DNA of 20,000 bases. It comes from Psammoneis japonica. Its lineage: Eukaryota. The position numbers and the translations under genes were made by a program. Within the stretch, counting starts at the first letter, position 1. Each line of letters starts with the position of its first letter. The stretch is taken from NCBI GenBank assembly GCA_008632985.1, contig QPGO01000196.1:118952-138951 (forward strand). The letters run 5' to 3'. Under the pieces are notes generated by a model, which saw only the letters and a program-made list of their open reading frames with translations, had not been told where the DNA came from and made no database searches. This document shows positions 3,260 through 18,723 of this stretch, one piece after another.

Positions 3260-4805
3260 TCAGCTCAAGACCAACAACACTTGAAACACCTCTGTGTAGC
3301 AATAAAATGACAGAAACACTCACATTCTGTTAATTCACCATCTTCATCCCCATCACCAGAATTTTTGATTGTTGCACACAAGAGCATCGTGAGGCCTCCC
3401 GACCCACTGGCATTATTAATGTTTGCATTTCACCCATGAAAGATGAGAAGCAGTAACTCTCAAGAGCACCAGTAGTGAGTTTTAGACACTGCAGAAATAA
3501 AGGGAATGGAGAGAGTAAAAACAATGTAGCCGCACATGCCTTGAGCACCGCAGAAAAGGATTGACGTCATCATTCTTTGAAAAGACTCATCAAAATGCTA
3601 TGAAGCATTCAGCACATTCATCAGCTCAAGAATGTCAATATAAACAACTGTGTGTAACAAAATGACAGGAAAGCTCACATTCAGTCAATTTGATTGTTGC
3701 GTTCGAGAGTGTCGCAATCGCGAAGTCGCGTCGCTGTGCATCCCGACCACTGGCATTTTTGGTTGTTGCATCTCAATGAGTTGAATTGTTCAGCATCTGA
3801 ACCACAGCAGGAAAGAGGAGAAATGGTAAGTCTCAGACAAAAAAGAAAGAAAGGGAATGCAGAGAGAATCAAAATAATGTTGGCACATGCCTTCTGTGTC
3901 GCACAGTGCATTGGCGTGTTGTAGCGGCATTCCGACCACCAGTGTTCCACTAGCATTTTGATTCTTGCATTTTAACATCTTGAATTACTCAGCATCTGAA
4001 CCACAGAAGGCAAGAGCAGAAATATTAAGTCTTAGACAACAAAGAAACAAAGGGAGAATCACAATAATGTGGCACAAACCTGGAGTGTCGCACAGTGCAT
4101 CGGCGTGCACCGGCATCCCGACCAACAGCATTCCACCACTGTTTTTTTTAATCTCCCATTTCAATGTCTTGAATTTATCATCACCTGAGCCAGCAGGCAA
4201 GAGGACGAATAGCAAGCCTCAGTTAGCAAGGGAAAAAAGGGAGAATCAAAAAAACACCGCACATGCCTTGAGTGTCGCACGGTGTGTGCTGGCATCCCGA
4301 TCAACAGTGTTCTACTAGCATTTTTGATTCCTCCATTTCAACATCTTGAATTGCTCGGCAACTGAACTACAGCAGGCAAGAGGAAAAGTAATAAATCTCA
4401 GACAAGAAAGAAACAAAGTGAAAATCAACACAATGCCGCACACACCTTGAGCATCGCATGGCGTGCACCGGCATCCCGACCAATGGATTCCAATAGTGTT
4501 TTTGATTCCTCCATTTCAATGTCTTGAATTGCTCAGCAACCCTCTTGTAGCAGACAAGAGGAACAATAACAAGTCTCAGACAACAACAAAAAAACAAAGT
4601 GAAAATCAAAATAATGTTGCACACACTTGAGCATCTCATGGCGTGCACCGGTGTCACGACAACTGGAACTCGACTAGCAGCATTATTGATTGTTGCATTT
4701 TAAAATTGGTTAAATTGCTCTGCACCTGGCTATAGCAGGCAAGAGGAGAAATGGTAACTGTCAGACAAAAAGGAAACAAAGGCAATGCAGAGAAAATCAA
4801 AATGA
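3260..4805. repeat. Diverged ~180-bp tandem repeat array (about 6 clear units plus older, longer units at the left)
   Basis: The anchor GCATCCCGACC (with variants) recurs at about 3394, 3738, 3927, 4113, 4292, 4471 and 4651, with spacing of roughly 178-189 bp across the last six. Shared blocks include TTGAATTGCTCAGCA, GCAGGCAAGAGG, AAGTCTCAGACAA and GAATCAAAATAATG. 3262-3328 is also echoed at 3622-3683. Confidence 0.9.
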
Positions 4806-6900: not shown

Positions 6901-7735
6901 TGATCGGAATCGATCGGATCAATTTTTCCGAATTGACAGTTTCGTTCACTAAGTGTTTTAGAGTCGTAATTTTTGTTCTTATTTTTACGTTCCTTTGCCG
7001 AGGAACTCATTTTTATTGTTTTTGTGAACTGCCCAGTCACTGTGGCATTCAATTCCTCTTTCACAGAGACATTTTTCTGCTGTTGTCACGTCGCGTGCGA
7101 TTGCTGTTAGAGTGTCATATTTTTGGGTCTCTCTCAGAGCCACCCTTGCACTCTTTTTGCTGCTTCATTTTCAGAATAGCTTCAATCCGTGATGCAGGTG
7201 TTCTTTTTTCAAAGATTGGACCTCTTGTTCACTTTGGATTGTGCAGGCACCACACAGGAGACCATTTTGGAATCAAATTTGGAACCATTTTGAATTTGGA
7301 ATCAACTTTGCTGTCAGTGCCTGATTTGATATATTTTTTCGTCATGGACGTCTTCAACGACCTTTAGATGACTCAAAACTTAATCAGCTCATCAAGGATG
7401 AGTTCCAACAGTTGATTGTTTTGAACAGTAGACTGATGCTGCCATCCTTGCGGTGCGAGTCATGGCTGATAGCTCAGCGCTCGGTTTCGCGCTAGATTCG
7501 ACTTAGAATCGATTGAAGGGTCGTATAGACGCTCTTCATTGACCTCTTGGGTCTAGCAGAGGCTTTCTTGCTGTTAAGCTGCTCTGGTTTCTTCAGATCG
7601 TCTCGAAAATAATGATTCTGATTCTAAAGTGCAACTTGTAACTTCTCTCCATAAACAAGTCGAGGGGAGTGTAATTAAGTAGTTTAAACACTTTGTTATG
7701 TGAAATGTCCAAGTTTCCATCGACCGGGAGAGGGT

Positions 7736-8878
7736 TCAAGTTGGCGAGCCGACTTTGGTGATTTGTGTAGAAAACATACTAAGCTCTACGTACGTAGAAT
7801 CTGGCCCACTTTTGTACCCATACCACCTTAAGTTAAGGTCGCGGAAGTAATCAAGCTCTTCCTCGCGTGCCTTGCACTTTTTCTGAGCATTGGCAAAGCA
7901 CTCGTCTGCCTTTGTTCCGATGATAGTATGAACATCTTCTTCAGGCTTGGATTTCTGATTGGGCTTGCCGCCTCCACCATTGGCATGGTTAGTCTTGACA
8001 GGTTTCACGTGAAGCTTGAGTGCACGGCAATCGTCAGCATGATGTCCACAGTTAGTCCCATGGAGCATGCACGACTTCTGGGTGTTCTTCTGATTCGTGA
8101 TCAATGACTCAGAATTGTCCGTTCTATGGCCCCGCTTACGTGGGACCTTAGTATGTTGGTCCTGGTTACCTTTGGTAGACTCGACCTGCTAGATCCACTC
8201 GCAGAATTGTACAAACTTGGACATAGTATGAGCCAACGGGTCAAAATTCTGTAGTGTCATGATCTTCTGCCACGCATTTGTCACTCCGTACTCGAGCAAG
8301 TCACAGAGTTCGTCATTAGGTAATGACACCAGTGCTGCTCCTCCCTGCGTCACAGGCGGAAACTGAGAGACACAGCCATTAATTTAAACAGCCCTTGCTG
8401 CATAGTCATGAGTAGAAACATCAGCAGGCTTGCGCATGAAGCGTCACAGATAACGTTTCTGCAATGGTGCCACCCCATGTGGGAAGATACTTTCCTTTAG
8501 CTTTGCTATGCACGCGGCATGCGCAGCATTGGTTTGAGACGCCTGCTCTTCAGCGGCATTGTTAAAGGTTGTCAGGGCATCGCCCTGGAGAAGCCTGCAC
8601 ATAAGTGCATGCTTCGCCGGCCCCATAGTCATGTTTTGTCCTTGATGCACGTGCTCGGTGTTGCATAGAAAAACAAGAATTTCCTCGCATGTTCCCATAG
8701 AAAAGTGTGGTAGACCCATCTCGTGCATTGGACTGTCAGGATCAGCAGGGTCGTTACATAGCTTGAACGTCTGGTACTCACCCTGCTGCAGTTCCTTCTT
8801 CTCCGGCCGTGCAAACGGAATCGGCGGCTTGAGACGTTTCTTCCTGGTGGTTTTCAAGTTTGTTGGTCCTACCAACAT
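7736..8878 (-). pseudogene. gag: Ty3/Gypsy gag, one reading frame with three premature stops
   Basis: Reads LKPPIPFARPE...GTCEEIL...RLLQGDALTTF...QKRYL*RFMRKP...QFPP...LPNDELCDLLEYGVTNAWQKIMTLQNFDP...FVQFCE...CMLHGTNCGHHADDC (zinc knuckle). In-frame stops at 8444-8446, 8384-8386 and 8189-8191; no frameshift up to the knuckle. Confidence 0.8.
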
Positions 8879-8905
8879 ATCGTAGTTTTCGTTTTGTAGA
8901 TTTCA

Positions 8906-8922
8906 TAACCTCGCACACCATG
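8906..8922 (-). promoter_or_regulatory. Candidate LTR 3' end (CA) and primer-binding site
   Basis: The minus strand reads ...CCCGCA TGGTGTGCGAGGTTA about 30-40 nt upstream of the gag ATG. CA followed by TGG is the canonical LTR/PBS junction. The priming tRNA was not identified and there is no second LTR in the window. Confidence 0.35.
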
Positions 8923-10153
8923 CGGGAGTAACATTACTGTGCCCTGTGCATGCAATGGGCGACGAAAATGTAGATGTGTTGCAACTGTATCGATGTGAAA
9001 ATTATGAGCTAGTTTACATGTAGAGAAATGTAATTGTGCGAATAGGGAATCTTGTCAAATTAGCTGTTTGTTAGCATTTTGGATCGTACCAATCGATTGT
9101 GCGTTCGCATTGTGGATCGTGCAAATCACACCATCACGCACTGTGCATGAGTGATGTCATCGTGTGGAATCACACCACTGTTGTGGGCCAGACAACAGGT
9201 TAGTGTGCTTCACATGGGTGCTCTCTTGGCATCCTTCTAGATTGCCTAAGACACAGAGCCACGCCCTCCTATGGTCGTGCTTCCCAGGTACGTGCTGACA
9301 ATGCTACATTGCCAGCACGTACAAGAGGCTATGCACGGTCTCACCGTGTTGTCCAGTGCTGAGGCATGCTGCAGTTTGTGTGAGCTTATACATGCTTAAT
9401 GACCATGTGTTATTGTGTAACTTGCGTACGTGACTGTCTTGGCATGTTATTTCGTGCAATGTCTCAACGGTCAAAACACTCATAGTAAACAATTAAAGCC
9501 ATTAATTTAGTTTATGGCTAATAAAATGTCATGGAAGCATTGCCAGCTGTTGACAAATGCATCGCTGAAAAGCTGAGATCAAGAGCTTTCGATCAGCATC
9601 CATACCTCAAAATCGACCATACGAGCTATTTCGAGCTCCGTTAGCACCTTTCTATGTGGCCAGTCTTAAATGCTCACAAAAACACAGCTACGTGTCTCGC
9701 CACATACAAAGCCACTACCTGCGACGACCATGGCTGATGCATCGACACATCGACGCGATGCGCCCCCCCTTGTGGTAGAATTAGGAGGAATGAGCTTTTC
9801 CATTAAGTTCTCCACATTAACATCAGTCATGTGTGGTTCTACTGTGGCCTTAGCCTTTACTGTAGATGCCTCATGGCTTGCATTTGTGACCACACAACAC
9901 AAGCATGATAAAACGATCTGCTGCATTCTGCACATAAGATGCATGGAAGGGAGGAAACAACGTGACTGTTCAATCCACCACATTTTTATTAGCCATGTAA
10001 GGTTCTACTTTTGCCTTAGCCATCACTCTAGTTGCCTTATGATTCGCATTTGTGATGACACGACACAAAAACAGTGCTTTTCTGACAACCGATCTGTTGC
10101 ACTAGCATTCTGCATATAAGCCACCATATTTCACCTTATCTTTTATGCTATAG

Positions 10154-10168
10154 ATGACATTCAATCAA
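10154..10168. repeat. LINE target-site duplication, left copy
   Basis: ATGACATTCAATCAA, identical to 18126-18140. Confidence 0.9.
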
Positions 10169-10279
10169 AAAAAAAAACAGATCTATGTTTATAGTGCTGT
10201 CACTCCTTTGCCAGCTAAGCCGGCACCGGCTAACCCACACTTCCAGTGCACCGTTAAGTGCGGCAGAAGCTTCTTGGGA

Positions 10280-13200
10280 TCAGCCGGAAGGGGCATCACC
10301 ATGAGATGACGCCCATCCAAAATAGCTTGCAATGGAGCGAGTGCCACGAAGCGCTTCACGCTTCGCCTTCTTTAGGCTTTCTTTTAGACGTGGTTTGACC
10401 ACAGCAATCCAATTCATAATCCGTAGTGTAGAGTGGGACATGTGGTCGTCAACTGAATCCAGCAGCACCTCTCTGTCTTTAGCCAAATAATCCTGTCTTT
10501 TGTTGTAAACAGCCGTAGGCTCGGCTTCCGCCTGACGGCGTAAAGATGATTTCCTCGAATCTGCGTCATGACCATGAACCTCTTGATTATGTTCTTCCCA
10601 CAGTTCCCACCAGGACTTCCAAATGTAACTTCCCATCTGCACTCCCCACACAGGAGGGGGTCAATTCTCTTTCCCACATTTCTCCAACAGACCCGTCTCA
10701 CGAAGATGTGTCTCCTGAAACACATTCCAAAGGGTAGAGCACCGTCCGTTAAAAACTTGTCGCCATCCTATCTCTGACTGGGCTTTCCATGGCATTCTCA
10801 GCATTGGGGTAATGTCAGATTCACACTGCATCTCACCTCCTGGCCATGTCTCAAGGGAAGTCAGCAGTGGATCGCATGGAGGTGGCATTGTGTCAATTTT
10901 GTTACAGTATTTTCGTAAGCCCTGTGGGAATTTGCAATGCCAGGCCTTGTTGGCGGTGCACCGTAAAATATGGTCGCGATCCTCCACAGGGTGTTCGCAC
11001 GTGAGGCAATGATGTGGCCGTACAGGATTGCACCGATGAGCAATCTTGTTTGTTGGAAGGAGCTCGTGGATGAGTTTAACCATGGAGACATGTTTCTTGG
11101 AGTACCTGCACACCAATGTTGCATGGACCTCCCAGTCGATCTTTTCTGTGATAGATTCATCCCAATCGTTTCTTTCCCAAACACATGCTAAGAGAGCGGG
11201 AGCCGTAGTGGCACATCTGACCGTGGATTTCATTCCTGCAGTGACTGTTCCATCGGTGAGGCACAGGCATGATTGACAATGGGGAAAGGGAAGTGCCTCC
11301 ATTGTGTCTGTGTCATGTTGTCCCTGGCATCGTCCTTCCAACTTATCTGCACTTACGTTAACTTGTGCATTCAGTGGGAGGGTCTCCACTGACTGGAGCC
11401 TGTCTATCCTGGTGTCCTTTTACCCAAGCTATGGACGGAGCTTGCCCGGGGGAAGAAGGATTTAGAGCCTGAGAGATGGCTTCAAGCGTTAAGTGCATTT
11501 CATTGATGACATCCCAATTGGATGAAAGCACATTGGCATCATGCTGTCACAGATAAAAGTCTCTGTCGGAATGTTCTTGTGCCGACGGGTCGATGGATGG
11601 GCGGCTGGAAGACAATCTGGAAAGGACGTGGACCAAGGCCCTGTTGTCACACCAGTTGTCGACACCTTCATACATTGACATCTTGCAAAACTCAATCAGA
11701 TGATAGATGAACCGAATCAGGGAGAGAAAACCGTAAGCCTCGGCTTGACAGAATGATGGCGAACGACCAAACACCGGACCAGCACAATCCACCAAGGGTC
11801 TGCCGTTGTATGTAACAGTCCATCTGAAGGTTGCATCGTGATGAAGCATGGATCCGTCACTGCCCGCCACGAGGCGACTTGATACAAAAAAGTCCACCAG
11901 TTCATAAACGGGAATGTGGAAATCAATGTCTGAAAAGAGAGAGAACTCCCAGGTGGGCAATGCTTGCAAGCGGTCTGCGAATAGGTCGGGTAAGGGTGGA
12001 GTTGTTTCAACCGAGAGTTTCGGGCAATGAGGAATGTATTTCCATCTGCCGTCTTCTATGGAGACAATCTCAACCGGGAATGATGAGTCAGAGGGGGAGG
12101 GAACCGTTTCGAGTTGGTGCATCGACGTAGCAACAGTGTCCTGGACTGGAAAAATGTCAAATCCTGATGGAGATCGAACGTACAAGTGTGATTCTTTGGG
12201 AGACCAGCATGCTGAACATTGCATCCTCATTTCGGAAGGGGGCATGAGCCAGTCTCCTAAGGGAGCTTTCAAACGAAAATGAGTCTTGATGGCACAACAA
12301 TTCACATAACCGCATCCAAGGACTCCATGCATGGTGGCAAGGTTTAATCTGTTCGACATTGTTGAGGGTGCTGACACTGCTGAGGTACGTAGGATCACCA
12401 TAAACTTTGGACTCATCTAAGAAGCGTCTGTCTGCCAGAGTGATGTCCGAGACTTTCAGGACCTGAAGATGCAAGCAGCAACAGTTGATCCATCGGATCT
12501 CTCTAGAAGAGAATGCTTGTGACTCAAGAGCAACATCCATTAAAAACTGATCGTTGACTCTTTGCAAGGGGAGTGCACCGTCTTGGGATAGTGTAATGCA
12601 TCCTCCAATGCTCCGTAGAAAAGACCAAACTGACCAAACCATAGCGACTCGTCATGTGGATGAGGAGCATTGACATCTCTGAGGAAGCTAACCCCCGTGC
12701 CTAGATGCAGCTGATTCCATGCAATGGCAATGTGAACCGCAGCGTATGGTTGGTCATCTTGAATCAGATGCTGTGTGCCTCGAGAATGTTTCAATGGCTG
12801 TTGTATTTGGGCAATGCCCTGTTCTACATCAAGAGAACAAAATCCACCGCCACCAAGAGATTGCGGGCCGTATAGTATCAGACGCTTTGTATTCCTGTTG
12901 TAACCACATTTGGTGAATAACATAACTCTCATAGCGCGTTGCTGTATTTGTTTCAACACTTTGGAAGCAAATTGAGAGTTAGCGAGAACAAAAGACATCG
13001 ACGGCAAATAACATGCATGGTAGCATCTCCACAATTCGGTCCAGTCTAGAGGGACAGCCCGAATGAATAACGCTTTTCCATCACTCTTGGCTTGGAGCAC
13101 TTGTTGCTGTTTCTTTAACGTCCCAGCTGGGGAAGGGTAGTGTCCCAGTGTTTTATGCGGAGCAAAGGGAGACAACTGCTTGCTGCATCTGGAAGTGGAG

Positions 13201-16100
13201 CGATCGGCTGAGAAAATTTCCACTGACATTGTACGGTTGGAGGCTCGGTTAGCCAAATTCTGAGAAGTCCCAATTGATCGCATGAAAGGAACACTTAGGG
13301 AGTTCTAGTTCATGTCCACTGGCATGGAGCAAGTCGCACCAGAGTTGGTTATCGTGCTGCAATTTGGGAGCTAAATCTTCTGCAGAAGGCTGAGGAGATG
13401 CTCTGAAGTCATTCACTTGCTTGGACGTGTCGTCTACATGTCCTCTTGTGTAGATGTTGAGCTGATGAGACCTGTCTGGTGATTCGAAGAATGCGCCATT
13501 GGCCTTGGAGTCGAAGATATCAAACAGAATGCTGCATAAGTTGTTCCAGTAAATAGGGGAGTCACCACTGCCTTGGCCAGCACCGTAGATGGGGCATTCT
13601 GCATTGTGTGAATAAGATTCCTCAGAGACCCAACAAGGTGAGCAACCAGCACCTGGCAAGATGGACAGTTGTAATTGCTGCAGCCACTGCTGACAATTCC
13701 ATGCCCAAACTGACTGATGTGATCGCCATGAGAACCGGGAGATTCCTGTCGTAACACGAAGTGCAATCGTCATCACTCGTGATTGACGTCTTGCGAGAGA
13801 CCCTTGATTCTCCAACATTAGAACTTCTAGGAATACAGGAGTCTGAGCACACAGGAAAGCTCGAGTGCCGTAGATGCCTGGATTGAATAATTGATGTTGT
13901 TCCACATGTTGCGCGAGGGCTCGCCATTTCACGCTGGTAATCAACTGGAAGTCCGCTTCGTATATGTGGATCACTGGAGACGGTGGATCTTGTATTGCCT
14001 GGCTCTTTGAAGATCATACATTGACAACATCCCGCCACCTGTCGTAAGAATATCCCCATTTGAGTGCGCAGTTGAGCAGATTTAAGCGGATCTGTTGTAG
14101 TCTGTCTTGAACTTCATCCAATTCAATGCTTCTTGTAGTGGGTCACCTTGTGAATCCGTTTCTGAAGAATGCATGTGCTTAGAATACATGGCTTTCCAGT
14201 GGCCTAAATGAAGACCGGACTTAATCGAAGTAGAAGTGGATTCTGTCCATGACTTGAATTTCCCACGAACTTCTTCGGGTGCAAGAAAATTGGACACAGA
14301 CACTGGGGTTCATCGCTGGAGATGCTTAATCAGTAGAGCCGTAGCTTCAGTCAATCCGGACGTGGAACACTTGCCGTCAAGAATAAGATCTGCCATGATG
14401 GTGTTACCTTCGTACCCCGGGTCTATCAACAAAGGAGGAACGGTTGGAGGAGTGCCGTGAGCCTGTCCAAAATGTTTTCGATTCCGTGCTGTCAGGGCAG
14501 CTGCGACATCTTGTGGAGCGTCATTGTTCCCAGTTTTCACATGTCTTGGGATCCTCTAGAGGATTAGCCGGGACCTGCACTTTGCCAACACTGGAACCAT
14601 CCTTGTCGTCAAACGCATTGATTTTTGGAATACTCGAACCGTCTCTTCTGCACATCTTATGTTCCGAAGAATCTTTGCCTCTTTAGTCGCTGCCTTGGTA
14701 CCTTCTAGATCTAGTTCTGTGATCCGAGCGTCACGTTTTCGTTCACGGTGATGTAGACTGTCGCGAGCAACTTTCTTACATTTGGACTGGGCACGTCGGA
14801 GAGCATTCTGACATTCCTCCAAAGCAGTCGGGAGAAGGAACGACTCCTTTAATTTGTATTTTTCATGAACAATCGATTCCACAAAGGCAGTCCTGTTTTT
14901 AAACATAGAAAGAAGGCGAGACAGGATGAAGACTTTGCTGCACAGGTCCGCGAGTTTTGAGACCACTCTGGTTCATGATGACGCCGGCAATGTTTTGCTG
15001 CTGAGATACAAAATTGTGTCATATCGTGGTCCAACCATTCTGCAAGGGCATGGTCTGGCTCTTCAGATGCAAGGAGTGCTGCACTTCTATCTAACACATT
15101 TCGACTCTTGAGCATTGGACCAATGGCTTCGAGGTAAGTCACAACATGCTTCGGAGACTTTGCGAGGAGGGTTCGATGGGATGGGCGAGGGAGCTCGGCG
15201 GAAGAATTACCAAACAACAACTCTGTATCAAAGTCCACATAGTGGCCGCGGTGGTCCAAGGAAATTCTGTATCCAAATGATTCGTAACCGCATTTTGTGA
15301 CAGCTTGGAGAGCACCTGAAGTGGCAAGGACGTAATCAAGTCAGCGGGATCCGCAGAGATAGGTGGCAAAGTCAAGGTCCTGTATTTTGTTGTACATCAT
15401 GTCAGAGAGCTTGAATCTCATCGCTAAGCGGGCCAGAGAGTCAGTGCCATTTCGAAAATCAGTGCTAAAATCACCAAACAAAATGACTTCCCGATTAGGA
15501 TTGTCCAGAAATGTTTCCAATATCTGGGAGAGATCATAACAAAACGCGTGTCTTGGCTCTGGTCTTGCTCAACCTTGCTGGCGCAGTAAGTTAACCTGCT
15601 GGGCGTATGCTGTAGTTTTTTCTGCAGTCAAGGAATTGTTAGAGCGCACATGGCAGCACGAGATGAACATGACTTGTTTGCCGTCAAAAATTTGTATGGA
15701 CCATCTTCCTAGTGGATCGAGCATCTTGGTGCGGCAGTGAGAAGCGACTGAATTGCATGACATGATTGCGGTGCCTCCAGGCTTATGTGGAGTTGTAAAG
15801 GGGATGGATGATGCCGAGAAGGTGACTCGGCCGTGGTGGAGGGTGTTTTGGATGACAGAGCGGCAAGGTTGTGCAATGGAAGGTTGGGTGGTGTCTAGAC
15901 ACGTCTCTGATGTCCCAATGACATCAGCCTGAATCTCATTGATAACCTGGAAGCAGGAGTTGAAGTCGCCACCAAGAGAATCAAAGGCACAACCATTTGC
16001 ATTGAACGTAGAGACGAGTGGCATCAAGAGATTTTGGACCAAGCGGGTCCCCAAGTGAGTCATTTGATTTTAGATTCGAAATGGTCAATGGTTTGAGGGG
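10280..16100 (-). pseudogene. LINE ORF2 polyprotein (APE endonuclease, reverse transcriptase, RNase H, CCHC), multiple frameshifts and stops
   Basis: APE (~15230-16060): RLYVQ/NANG, VIGTSET, KPGGT, DPLGRWS, LFGDF, DHRGHYVDFD. RT (~13250-14250): SGLHLGHWKA, KEPGN, IHIYEADF, GAGQGSGDSP, GHVDD, GHELELPKC. RNase H (~11340-11870): GSDGS, AEAYG, WCDN, DWDV, NVSADKL. C-terminus: CLTC..EDRDHILRC, QSEIGW..F.GR, WELWEEHN..HG, stop at 10280. The start position is approximate. Confidence 0.9.
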
Positions 16101-16229
16101 GAAGAGAGCACTGTCTGCCGTCAAGGAGGTGTTGCCATTGTTGAGCAGTGGCTTGCACTGAGGTGGATGATGGTGCATTAGAAGAGGTCCCCTGCAAAGC
16201 AGCAGGAGCATTTGTGTGGGAAGGGGTGT

Positions 16230-18036
16230 CACCCCTCACATTGAGGCCGTGCTCCCTTGAAGGGAGACTGGAATAGATTCATTATCTGCATCTGAGGTCA
16301 TGGGCGAAGAAGACGACTTGGTCCGCCCCGTTAAAAATGCGAGTCCTTTAGGGACATGTCCATCAAGGAGTTGTCCAGGGGTGCCTCAGAAGAAGCTCCA
16401 GCAGGGGCACTGGCATTTGGTTTCTTGCACACAGGAATGAGCATGCATCTGATGCTTGGTCCGGGAGGGGCAACCGAGCCTGAATAAAGGTCTGTAGTTC
16501 CTTAATGAGATTATCGATTTGAAGCTGATGCTTTGCCGTGAGGTCCTGTTGGAGGGCAGCCACAGATTGTTGGTGTTGCTTTTCAATCTTTGTTGGCCTG
16601 TCTTCATTTTCTTGTTTCATACGAGCCATTTCTTGTTTTAAATCATCCATGTCAGACGCGTGATCTGTAAGATCTGAGGTGGCAGCAGTGGGCAAAGGTT
16701 CAGCAGGGGATGAGTTAAGAACTTCAGCAAACGTTTTGAAGGGAGGAACGCCAACGTTGGAGGGAACCAGAGGAGCAGGAGGGGCCGTACTTGTCGCTGC
16801 AGGTTTTGGGGAAGCATCTGCGCTGTCTTGGGAAACATCTGAAATGTCAAGGGAGGTCCAGCTCTTGACACTGGCGGAAGTGATAGAATTCGCTGTGTCT
16901 GATAATTCATCTGAAATGCCTGGAATCATGGGGAACGGTTCACCTGGGGCTGTCAAAGAGCCGTCGGGGATTACATCCAACATTCTCCTGAGATTCTTTG
17001 AAATGTAATCACGAACAGACTTATGATGTTTCTTGGAGGCCAAGACATTAAACCTTGAAAAGGCAGTCTTCCTCTTAGAAGGAACTACGTCTGTGACTCC
17101 TTCAAGGATGATGAAACGGGGACGAAATAAAAAGTTGATATCAGTGGCATACAATGCAGAAGGGGAACCACGTAAGTCGTTGCCTGGAGTTTCTGTTGGT
17201 GTTCGACCGCCTTCTCATAAGCTTCAAGCTCGGTTTGTGAGTACCGCCAACAGGATAGGATTAAGAATCTTGGACACTTCTTCAGGATTTCCAGCAACAC
17301 TCGAATAACATCTTTCGCCTTATCACGCGGTGTTTCAATTGAATAAAAGTCGGCACTGACATTCTTGTCAGTCGGAGAGGTAATCTTTTGAGGAATAAGC
17401 CGGATAGGCATTTTCGCTCGGCGACTCTTAGGTGCAACTGCTTGAATGCTCTTGATGACAACATCAGCTGTGTAGCATTTTGGGAGAAATTCGGAAACTT
17501 GAGCTACACGAACCAAATCCACTACCGTTTCGTCCCATTCATGGCGGCGCATATAGATGGAGTTAGTTTGGAGAGTTTTGGTTACGAAGGGAATGTCTCT
17601 AATGTCCGACATAGTCAGGGACATGCGGATACGATGAACAATTACATGTGTTGGCTTGCGACGATGAGAACCGCCGATACGGTGAATCACAAAATGTTGG
17701 GAGTGAGTAAGGCCAGCAGTCCATTCAACCATGTTGATTTCCGGAATCACCTTTCCGCGACTGGAGAAAATAGATATCTTGTTGACTAGTGGGTCTTGAG
17801 TTGCTTTTTGTTGTAGAATTTGTAACACCTGTGTGTGGCCCATGGCGAGTGCAGTAGAAGCATTGGCATCATCGGAGGTACATTCAAAACAGAGGGTGAT
17901 CTCGGTAGTTCCATCATTGTTTGAAGTGCAGTTTCTGGCACGGGCAGGAGTAGAAGGAGCATCGTCTTTGTCTTTGGGAGGATCAGGGGGGATCTTTGCC
18001 AGTGGGGCTAGCCTGTGGTGTCGGAGAGGTCGTCAT
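16230..18036 (-). pseudogene. LINE ORF1 (gag-like protein with Pro/Ser-rich linker and coiled coil), frameshifted
   Basis: ATG at 18036 (MTTSPTPQASPTGKDP). A +1 frameshift in a C6 run (~17986-17991) leads into the 17085..17843 frame, then the 16363..17154 frame with the coiled-coil-like MDDLKQEMARMKQENE...LIKELQ. It lies upstream of APE and inside the TSDs. The end is approximate. Confidence 0.7.
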
Positions 18037-18125
18037 GGTGACGAGAACGTAGCACAAAACACACGTAGAATTCCATGTAGAAACTGTCAATGTGAAGCTA
18101 CGTAGAAAAGTTTCCAAGCTGCAGA

Positions 18126-18140
18126 ATGACATTCAATCAA
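18126..18140. repeat. LINE target-site duplication, right copy
   Basis: ATGACATTCAATCAA, identical to 10154-10168. Confidence 0.9.
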
Positions 18141-18402
18141 CAGTGTCGACTGCATTGACTTGTGTCATGATTGATCGACAATTGCCGTCATAAAATGGAT
18201 TCGAACACGCCATTGCGTGTCTTGCCCCTTCTGTTTGTTGCGCGGTCGTCTGGAGCCGGCATTGTTAGCGAGTGGCTCCGTACATGCGTGGTTTGGCGTA
18301 GAAATGTATGGAAGGGGTGTTTTTGTTTTTGTTCGGCGATGAGGCCATTGCACGTGTCACGAAAACAAAAAACGTTTTTGTTTTTGTTTTTGGGCGACGT
18401 CA

Positions 18403-18462
18403 AGGGAGTTTAGTTGGTAACCGGTTACTTGATGACCTGGGTTCGAATCCTGGGTGTGGCTC
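18403..18462 (+). pseudogene. tRNA-like remnant (tRNA pseudogene or tRNA-derived SINE head)
   Basis: A-box/D-loop-like AGTTTAGTTGGTAA (18407-18420) and B-box/T-arm CTGGGTTCGAATCCTGG (18437-18453). The spacing is too short and there is no anticodon arm or clean acceptor stem. Confidence 0.45.
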
Positions 18463-18723
18463 ATAGTAGATGTTACTGGATCTTTTAATCGAGAGCTCGT
18501 AATCACGCACTGTATGTAGAATTTGTATAGGGAGAGTCGTGCGAAAACCGCGTGGTTTTTAAAAAAATGCCTCGATTCAGCCAATCAGAAGCTCTGAAAT
18601 CATCCTCTCACGCTCGTGTCAGCAATGAATCTTTCCGAGGGGTCGTCATACTGCAGACTCCACTGTACCTCCTCTCTGCTAGCTAGAGAGTGCTCTTTAC
18701 TTCAGCAGCTACTCTCCACTCTA

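Follow-up and report, generated by a model that had tools for sequence, protein, structure and literature searches.

The window, by which we mean the whole 20,000-nt stretch of DNA analysed here, contains a non-LTR retrotransposon of 7,957 bp on the minus strand (10169-18125), which is bracketed by exact 15-bp target-site duplications (TSDs) (Table 1). Both TSD copies read ATGACATTCAATCAA and form a direct repeat that is identical at 15 of 15 positions. Only these two sites were found in a 16-mer search allowing up to two mismatches (chance expectation 0.04), in agreement with the exact 15-bp TSDs that the original prediction had placed at both ends. On the plus strand, the copy at 10154-10168 ends in ...TCAATCAA-3'OH, the primer of target-primed reverse transcription (TPRT). 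Long terminal repeats were absent from the element. At its 5' end, a second copy in run X1 (one public DNA run with this sequence, stored as contigs) could be aligned as far as 18111. The element had been described as full-length. This holds for its extent, which is near full-length because the 5' UTR, the ORF1-like region, ORF2 and the 3' UTR are all there; it fails for the coding state, as ORF2 is split into eight frame pieces. No second copy of the element was found elsewhere in the 20-kb window by blastn.

Table 1. Parts of the retrotransposon and its target-site duplications, in window coordinates.
Feature	Position	Strand	Evidence or remark
Target-site duplication, 3'-end copy	10154-10168		exact 15-bp repeat and empty-site contigs
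Oligo(T) tail	10169-10177	minus	T9 in the sense direction; T11 with the TT of the TSD (10167-10168)
Spacer TCTG	10178-10181	minus	between box and tail
Terminal box TATAAACA-TAGA	10182-10193	minus	homologous to the (T)AAAATAGA box of the clade
Structured 3' UTR, stem-loops just upstream of the box	10194-10279	minus	fold and covariation
ORF2 remnant	10280-16082	minus	tblastn; stop codon 10280-10282
ORF1-like region, two overlapping open pieces	16363-18032	minus	tblastn against relatives
5' UTR and 5' end of the element	18033-18125	minus	boundary from the TSD
Target-site duplication, 5'-end copy	18126-18140		exact 15-bp repeat and empty-site contigs

The LINE is embedded in repetitive DNA (9784-10153 and 18141-18500), and the summed contig depth of the flank was ~460-1,200. 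One side of the flank holds a direct repeat of ~166 bp (9784-9902 versus 9950-10068, 73% identity). The idea that the TSD is a by-product of this repeat was ruled out, as the identity of the two TSD copies extends over only 15 bp and the empty-site contigs described below join seamlessly. Beyond the 5' end of the element, the region 18318-18399 contains two (TGTTT)n-like tracts. One is TGTTTTTGTTTTTGTT, at 18318; the other is GTTTTTGTTTTTGTTTTTG, at 18379, in front of which stands its near-complement CGAAAACAAAAAACG. These tracts resemble the (TGTTT)n tails described below and had no match to our nhmmer 3'-end profiles. A tRNA-like stretch follows at 18405-18460, with a perfect B-box-like GGTTCGAATCC at 18440. 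ARAGORN found no tRNA in this stretch, nor did Rfam at E values up to 1, so that GGTTCGAATCC is not a confirmed tRNA or SINE head. The stretch may be a decayed tRNA, a SINE head or a chance resemblance. TA dinucleotides were depleted throughout the window (observed/expected 0.23-0.72), with an excess of TG+CA (1.19-1.79), and a sharp contrast between element and flank was absent.

The coding direction was examined by tblastn with five full-length relatives (P0002, P0003, P0006, P0007 and P0080; four of 1,898-1,934 aa and one of 1,224 aa). All homology to these ORF2 proteins lay on the minus strand, from 16082 to 10319. Therefore, minus is the sense strand and the T-run is its 3' end; the minus-strand direction first read from open reading frames thus rests on homology to LINE proteins of ~1,900 aa. 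The homology fell into eight pieces, in frames -1, -2, -1, -3, -1, -3, -1 and -2. The window copy is dead, as it has at least seven frame changes. Indels of 1-4 bp distinguish it from other copies in X1, and at least three of them (11388, 12634 and 14142) sit at ORF2 frame changes.

ORF2 comprises an APE endonuclease, a reverse transcriptase (RT), a putative RNase H-like region (a motif recognised by eye) and a CCHC zinc knuckle. Among the 12 ORF pieces of the window, 11 had no match in Pfam, and the piece at 15569-16069 had a sub-threshold match to the endonuclease family PF03372 (E 0.0014). The match to PF03372 was clear, at up to E 2.5e-12, in full-length relatives whose alignment with the window spans ORF2. 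In these relatives, the RT family (PF00078, RVT_1) was weak (E 1.7e-09 in P0042), zf-RVT (PF13966) was found and no RNase H family was matched in Pfam. The RT of the window (13249-14013) shared 39-41% identity with the top-ranked relatives. In an alignment of 25 full-length proteins, invariant columns occurred along the whole length. The conserved columns GQGSGxSP and VDD were present, which we take to be RT motifs, together with SDGS and HQD, presumably RNase H-like, and a C-C-H-C set on the C-terminal side, presumably the zinc knuckle. The first piece of the ORF1-like region was homologous by tblastn to sequence upstream of ORF2 in 19 related loci (best match L019, E 2e-31). With an endonuclease at the N-terminal side of ORF2, an RT, TSDs and no LTRs, the element is an APE-type non-LTR retrotransposon.

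The sense strand of the element ends in ...TATAAACA-TAGA-TCTG-T9, which can also be read as ...TATAAACATAGATCTG-T9, followed by a TSD beginning with TT. On the plus strand this is an A11 run at 10167-10177, the sole homopolymer of at least 9 nt in the 20-kb window; the only further run of at least 8 nt is a T8 at 4142. As the TSD may account for two of the 11 A, the element itself contributes A9, or T9 in sense. A poly(A) tail, as in L1, is thus replaced by T9-11 at the sense 3' end, just as the sequence had first been read. We also considered a poly(A) tail on the other strand. This was rejected, for the A-run lies at the 5' side of the plus strand and neither strand has an A-run at its 3' side.

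One explanation of the run is a local accident: it might have arisen by slippage of the terminal AA of the TSD, or have pre-existed in the target, and would then have no meaning for the family. The TSD does end in AA, which leaves the boundary ambiguous by 2 nt. We surveyed this possibility among the 1,146 contigs of run X1 placed on 9800-18500. X1 is possibly the source sample of the window and is then not independent for this locus; other copies of the element in X1 are independent. Two X1 contigs joined 10153 to 18126, skipping 7972 and sharing 15 letters. They contained a single copy of the TSD followed by CAGTG, and the A-run was absent. These contigs may be paralogous rather than allelic, as the flank is repetitive (depth ~1,200), and in either case they show the sequence before insertion. 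Therefore, the T-run belongs to the insertion and not to the target; an empty allele already carrying A11, which had been set beforehand as a refuting observation, was not what we found. Other "empty" joints (10167 to 18161, 10168 to 18149 and others) were variant and look like paralogous copies of the host repeat.

Copies at other sites gave the same answer. Loose contig ends, at an agreement of 0.44-0.46, lay before 10168 in seven cases and before 10169 in eight. These 15 contigs align from the tail position on and have unrelated flanks; the evidence here is the start of the alignment. Moreover, all 35 related loci whose contig extends to the terminus have homologous tails, as described below. 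Slippage of the TSD, which had been named as another way in which the prediction could fail, is contradicted by the 15 contigs and the 35 loci, and a local accident of either kind is extremely unlikely.

Summed depth in X1 rose from ~80-100 at 16200-17950 to ~830-1,050 at 10382-11545, and it was 2,305 in the terminal bin (10091-10381), which is partly repetitive flank. The rise towards the T end points to 5'-truncated copies, as expected for a LINE. The family is multi-copy with a pattern of 5' truncation. Two details of the terminal region stand beside this. The depth of the terminal bin was more than twice that of the next bin, and 10 X1 contigs matched up to 10246 and six up to 10252 before diverging (agreement 0.55-0.58). 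These 16 contigs, which share only the last ~80 bp of the LINE (10169-10252), could represent a SINE-like non-autonomous element or diverged subfamilies in which the 3' module is conserved.

Relatives of the element were sought with its RT-bearing piece, which matched 96 proteins (E up to 3e-45). Two of them were named, both from Fragilaria crotonensis, and a protein atlas placed the family in Bacillariophyta. A profile of 25 proteins had 0 matches in a sequence search of PDB. As no PDB chain matches by sequence and RVT_1 is weak or absent, the family is a deep-branching LINE clade. The metagenome scan yielded 80 loci of 314 confirmed stretches. The C-terminus of ORF2 was reached in 40 of the 80 loci, and in five of these (L010, L020, L026, L036 and L065) the contig stops before the terminus. 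All of the 35 loci that reach the terminus have a 3' UTR of ~70-420 nt, a (T)AAAATAGA-like box, a spacer of 4-8 nt and a T-rich tail, with the reservations that the score used for picking the box rewarded T after it and that contigs assembled from metagenomic repeats may be chimeras where an element ends. Poly(A) ends were found in 0 of the 35, and no A-run of at least 6 nt followed the box in the loci tabulated by script. The T-run is therefore a trait of the clade and not confined to one copy, given these 35 T-rich ends and the 15 other X1 contigs that start at the tail.

Tails of T7-T11 were seen in 11 of the 33 tabulated loci (L031, L032, L038, L043, L050, L051, L055, L061, L069, L072 and L080). 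Seven loci had tails of the (TGTTT)n type and three had (TTTG)n; the rest were (TATC)n, (TA)n, (ATT)n, (ATTGT)n, (TATTGC)n, (TTTA)n and mixed T-rich strings. The variant box TATAAGTTATAAGA occurred with (TATC)n or (TA)n in L015-L018, where the termini of L017 and L018 were read by eye. AATAAA-like variants of the box were present in L012 (TAATAAATAGA), L038 (GTAATAAAGC) and L076 (AAAAATAAAGA). The composition of the tail zone was 65% T, 15% A, 13% G and 6% C. Long T-runs are otherwise rare in these sequences: on the sense strand, the 80 loci (544,537 nt) contain 16 T-runs of at least 7 nt, 11 of which are these tails, and eight of at least 9 nt, seven of which are tails. Three further termini were revealed by the nhmmer 3'-end profiles, on the minus strand of L028, on the minus strand of L038 and in L062, and they are T-rich as well, with the ends TGTTTTTCTTTTC, (TTA)n and TTATAT, respectively.

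Two of these loci have an unusual arrangement. L028 contains a second, inverted element (7371-9537, minus), in which ORF1 homology (9537-8158) and a LINE 3' end (7467-7371) are ~0.7 kb apart. It appears to lack ORF2 and may be an internally deleted, non-autonomous derivative. In L038 (9165-9337), two 3' ends of the clade lie tail-to-tail in opposite orientation, ~65 bp apart, with the tails T5AT9 and (TTA)n.

The RT tree retained each of the 36 rows for which a tail had been called. T-homopolymer tails occurred in three clades, each with its own support (L069+L080, the L031 group and L032+L038), which are interleaved with lineages carrying other T-rich repeats. Close relatives had the same type of tail (L001-L008, L075/L077 and L015-L018). 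The RT of the window (13237-14175) formed a very long, unplaced branch of 3 changes per column, compared with a median end branch of 0.29 among the metagenomic relatives, and its best identity was 44%. The window copy belongs to a distinct deep lineage or has undergone heavy mutation. The differences among copies in run X1 were mostly transitions; transition-type mutation may contribute to the long branch and has no bearing on the tail.

The 3' UTR before the box is also conserved. Two nhmmer profiles of the 3' end matched the window at 10163-10267 (E 3.8e-05) and 10163-10246 (E 2.3e-07), values to be read with the fact that the profiles were built from the same aligned segments with the window's own row included. 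Within the window, the profiles found the known end only. The terminal 117 nt of the window copy had a minimum free energy of -44.6 kcal/mol (z = -3.42), and 0 of 200 shuffled sequences folded as well. RNAalifold called 0 pairs on the full MAFFT alignment of 25 sequences, and structure was seen only within subgroups. In A3 (8 sequences), 96.1% of the cells were paired, compared with a shuffled mean of 82.3%, and seven of ten pairs had compensatory changes; 0 of 500 shuffles reached the observed value, and the slid controls gave 31-63%. In A4 (12 sequences, window included), 93.3% of the cells were paired (shuffled mean 84.6%; 0 of 500 shuffles as high; slid controls 26-51%), with compensatory changes in five of ten pairs. 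The A3 structure is a two-helix hairpin that ends just before the box. The closing helix of A4 was paired in 12 of 12 sequences, the window among them. The window keeps this helix via a double change, the lone UA at pair 23/74 presumably being its own row. No match was found in Rfam.

Taken together, we consider it likely that the T-run is a genuine, inherited 3' tail of a diatom APE-type LINE clade that moves by stringent, templated and annealing-primed TPRT. In the RNA, the structured 3' UTR would be followed by a (U)AAAAUAGA-like box, then by a spacer of 4-8 nt and finally by a short U-rich simple repeat. Several lineages would have U7-11 at this place, and elsewhere the repeat would be (UGUUU)n, (UUUG)n, (UAUC)n, (AUU)n or (UA)n. 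The ORF2 protein is presumed to recognise its own 3' UTR module, i.e. to show "stringent" recognition. Its endonuclease would nick the plus strand at 5'-TCAATCAA^CAGTG-3', and the freed 3'-OH ending in AA would pair with the U-rich repeat, so that reverse transcription would start inside the tail. Because of this internal start, the template would supply the sequence of the tail, subject to some slippage. The 15-bp TSD would then result from a second nick at a distance of 15 bp. The U-tract may also be internal to a longer transcript, either read-through or polyadenylated.

Templating of the tail, with specific recognition of the 3' end, is suggested by the heritable mixed repeats of the sister lineages. 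The same repeats bear on terminal uridylation, in which there is no encoded tail and a uridylyl-transferase adds untemplated oligo(U) that pairs with the A-ended nick. Pure T-runs in 11 loci and the window are what such an addition would leave, and the 3' ends of human LINE mRNAs are reported to be uridylated, which restricts L1 (PMC6191937). However, uridylation cannot make (TGTTT)n, (TTTG)n, (TATC)n, (ATT)n, (TA)n or (TATTGC)n behind the same box; the type of tail is common to close relatives; and the length of the T-run is narrow (7-11) over deep lineages. Uridylyl-transferases cannot produce lineage-specific mixed repeats, and terminal uridylation is therefore very unlikely. The original prediction had left open whether the U-tail was templated or uridylated, and the mixed heritable repeats speak for the former and against the latter.

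It was also suggested that the nicked target ending in ...ATCAA-3'OH could have primed on oligo(U). At the window insertion, the end of the primer (...CAA-3'OH) and the tail overlap by 2 nt. This overlap fits annealing-primed TPRT, and it is that of one insertion only. No convincing TSD was found in the metagenome loci, either as exact repeats of at least 9 nt or as 14-mers with up to two mismatches near the tail in 22 loci; the matches from these searches were scattered and did not adjoin the tails. As a result, the target preference, like the suggested priming, rests on one site.

This leaves room for a different view of the priming step, which is possible but distinctly less likely. The U-tract might not be the end of the RNA, and the 3' UTR module might fix an internal start of reverse transcription at which the primer pairs hardly or not at all, as in R2. 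The AAUAAA-like box and the U/GU-rich tract might, with the same modest probability, act as or overlap with a cleavage/polyadenylation signal and its downstream element; transcripts might likewise read through or be polyadenylated further on. An internal, structure-defined start is a live rival for the priming because the box is AAUAAA-like in some lineages (its variants in L012, L038 and L076 read AATAAA-like in DNA) and the tails, being U- or GU-rich, resemble downstream elements. Retrotransposed copies of UnaL2 end in TGTAA repeats despite the polyadenylated RNA of the construct, which also favours an internal start. However, the sharp boundary after the repeat and the 2-nt overlap at one site fit annealing as well. 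A structure-defined start keeps the templated, stringent core of our preferred explanation, and the priming step alone differs.

[quoted passage not shown] The diatom elements resemble these two in having a conserved stem-loop in the 3' UTR with compensatory changes, followed by a lineage-specific short tandem repeat; both features of stringent-type LINEs were thus found. They differ in that the tails of the diatom clade are all T-rich, several being pure T7-T11, and in that, throughout the clade, a (T)AAAATAGA-like box precedes the tail by 4-8 nt. Their protein is also divergent, with Pfam RVT_1 weak or absent and no sequence match in PDB. As non-poly(A) tails are well known among LINEs, the earlier statement that the oligo(U) end "inverts the usual logic" was overstated: mixed T-rich repeats behind the same box and hairpin follow the known pattern of simple-repeat tails.

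The endonuclease of L1 nicks at the consensus 5'-TTTTT/AA-3' (PMC8565326). Like the present family, human and mammalian L1 combine an APE-type endonuclease with an RT, produce TSDs of ~15 bp, leave copies truncated at the 5' end and have a primer whose end is complementary to the tail (here at one site). However, the pairing is mirrored: the diatom element has an A-ended primer and a T(U) tail, whereas L1 has a T-ended primer and poly(A). In place of the T-rich nick with a T-ended primer, the single site seen here is 5'-TCAATCAA^CAGTG-3', with a primer ending in A. Moreover, the diatom tail is short and apparently templated, and a specific 3' UTR module is conserved. The uridylation of L1 mRNA by TUT4/7 likewise places U residues at the 3' end of a LINE RNA, but it is described as a host restriction on a poly(A) element, whereas the T-rich tail here is encoded and heritable (PMC6191937). 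Ambal, a candidate clade that the original prediction had brought up, is a non-LTR clade in Repbase (PMC5753468, PMC4455052) reported only from "protists" (PMC4438587); the element here is from a diatom-type genome.

We found no description of T-tailed LINEs in the literature on non-LTR elements and stramenopiles, and Repbase entries may already show such ends. The "A/T-rich tail" of PMC5063351 and PMC7385966 is generic wording, and the papers on diatom transposable elements PMC2806351, PMC5029228 and PMC5348765 contained nothing on LINE termini. The unusual point is that tails which are uniformly T-rich, and in many cases T homopolymers, occur together with a clade-wide box and with a primer-tail pairing that is mirrored relative to L1.

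The 3' end of a LINE determines both the choice of RNA to be copied and the site at which reverse transcription begins. This apparently widespread diatom clade therefore offers a natural contrast to the poly(A)-dependent L1 for testing primer-template pairing in TPRT. A bolder reading, which we think unlikely, is that the clade is a mirror image of L1, tuned to A-ended nicks and U-rich template ends and thereby able to mobilise RNAs with a natural oligo(U) end, such as RNA polymerase III transcripts. If this were true, SINEs and retrocopies with terminal T-runs could arise in diatoms by a route that does not depend on poly(A), and the contigs that share only the terminal ~80 bp might be such passengers. 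Finders of LINEs and SINEs that are based on poly(A) would miss T-tailed elements. The succession of hairpin, (T)AAAATAGA, spacer and T-rich tail provides an annotation signature for diatom genomes, by which the ends of elements, 5'-truncated copies and possible SINE partners could be recognised.
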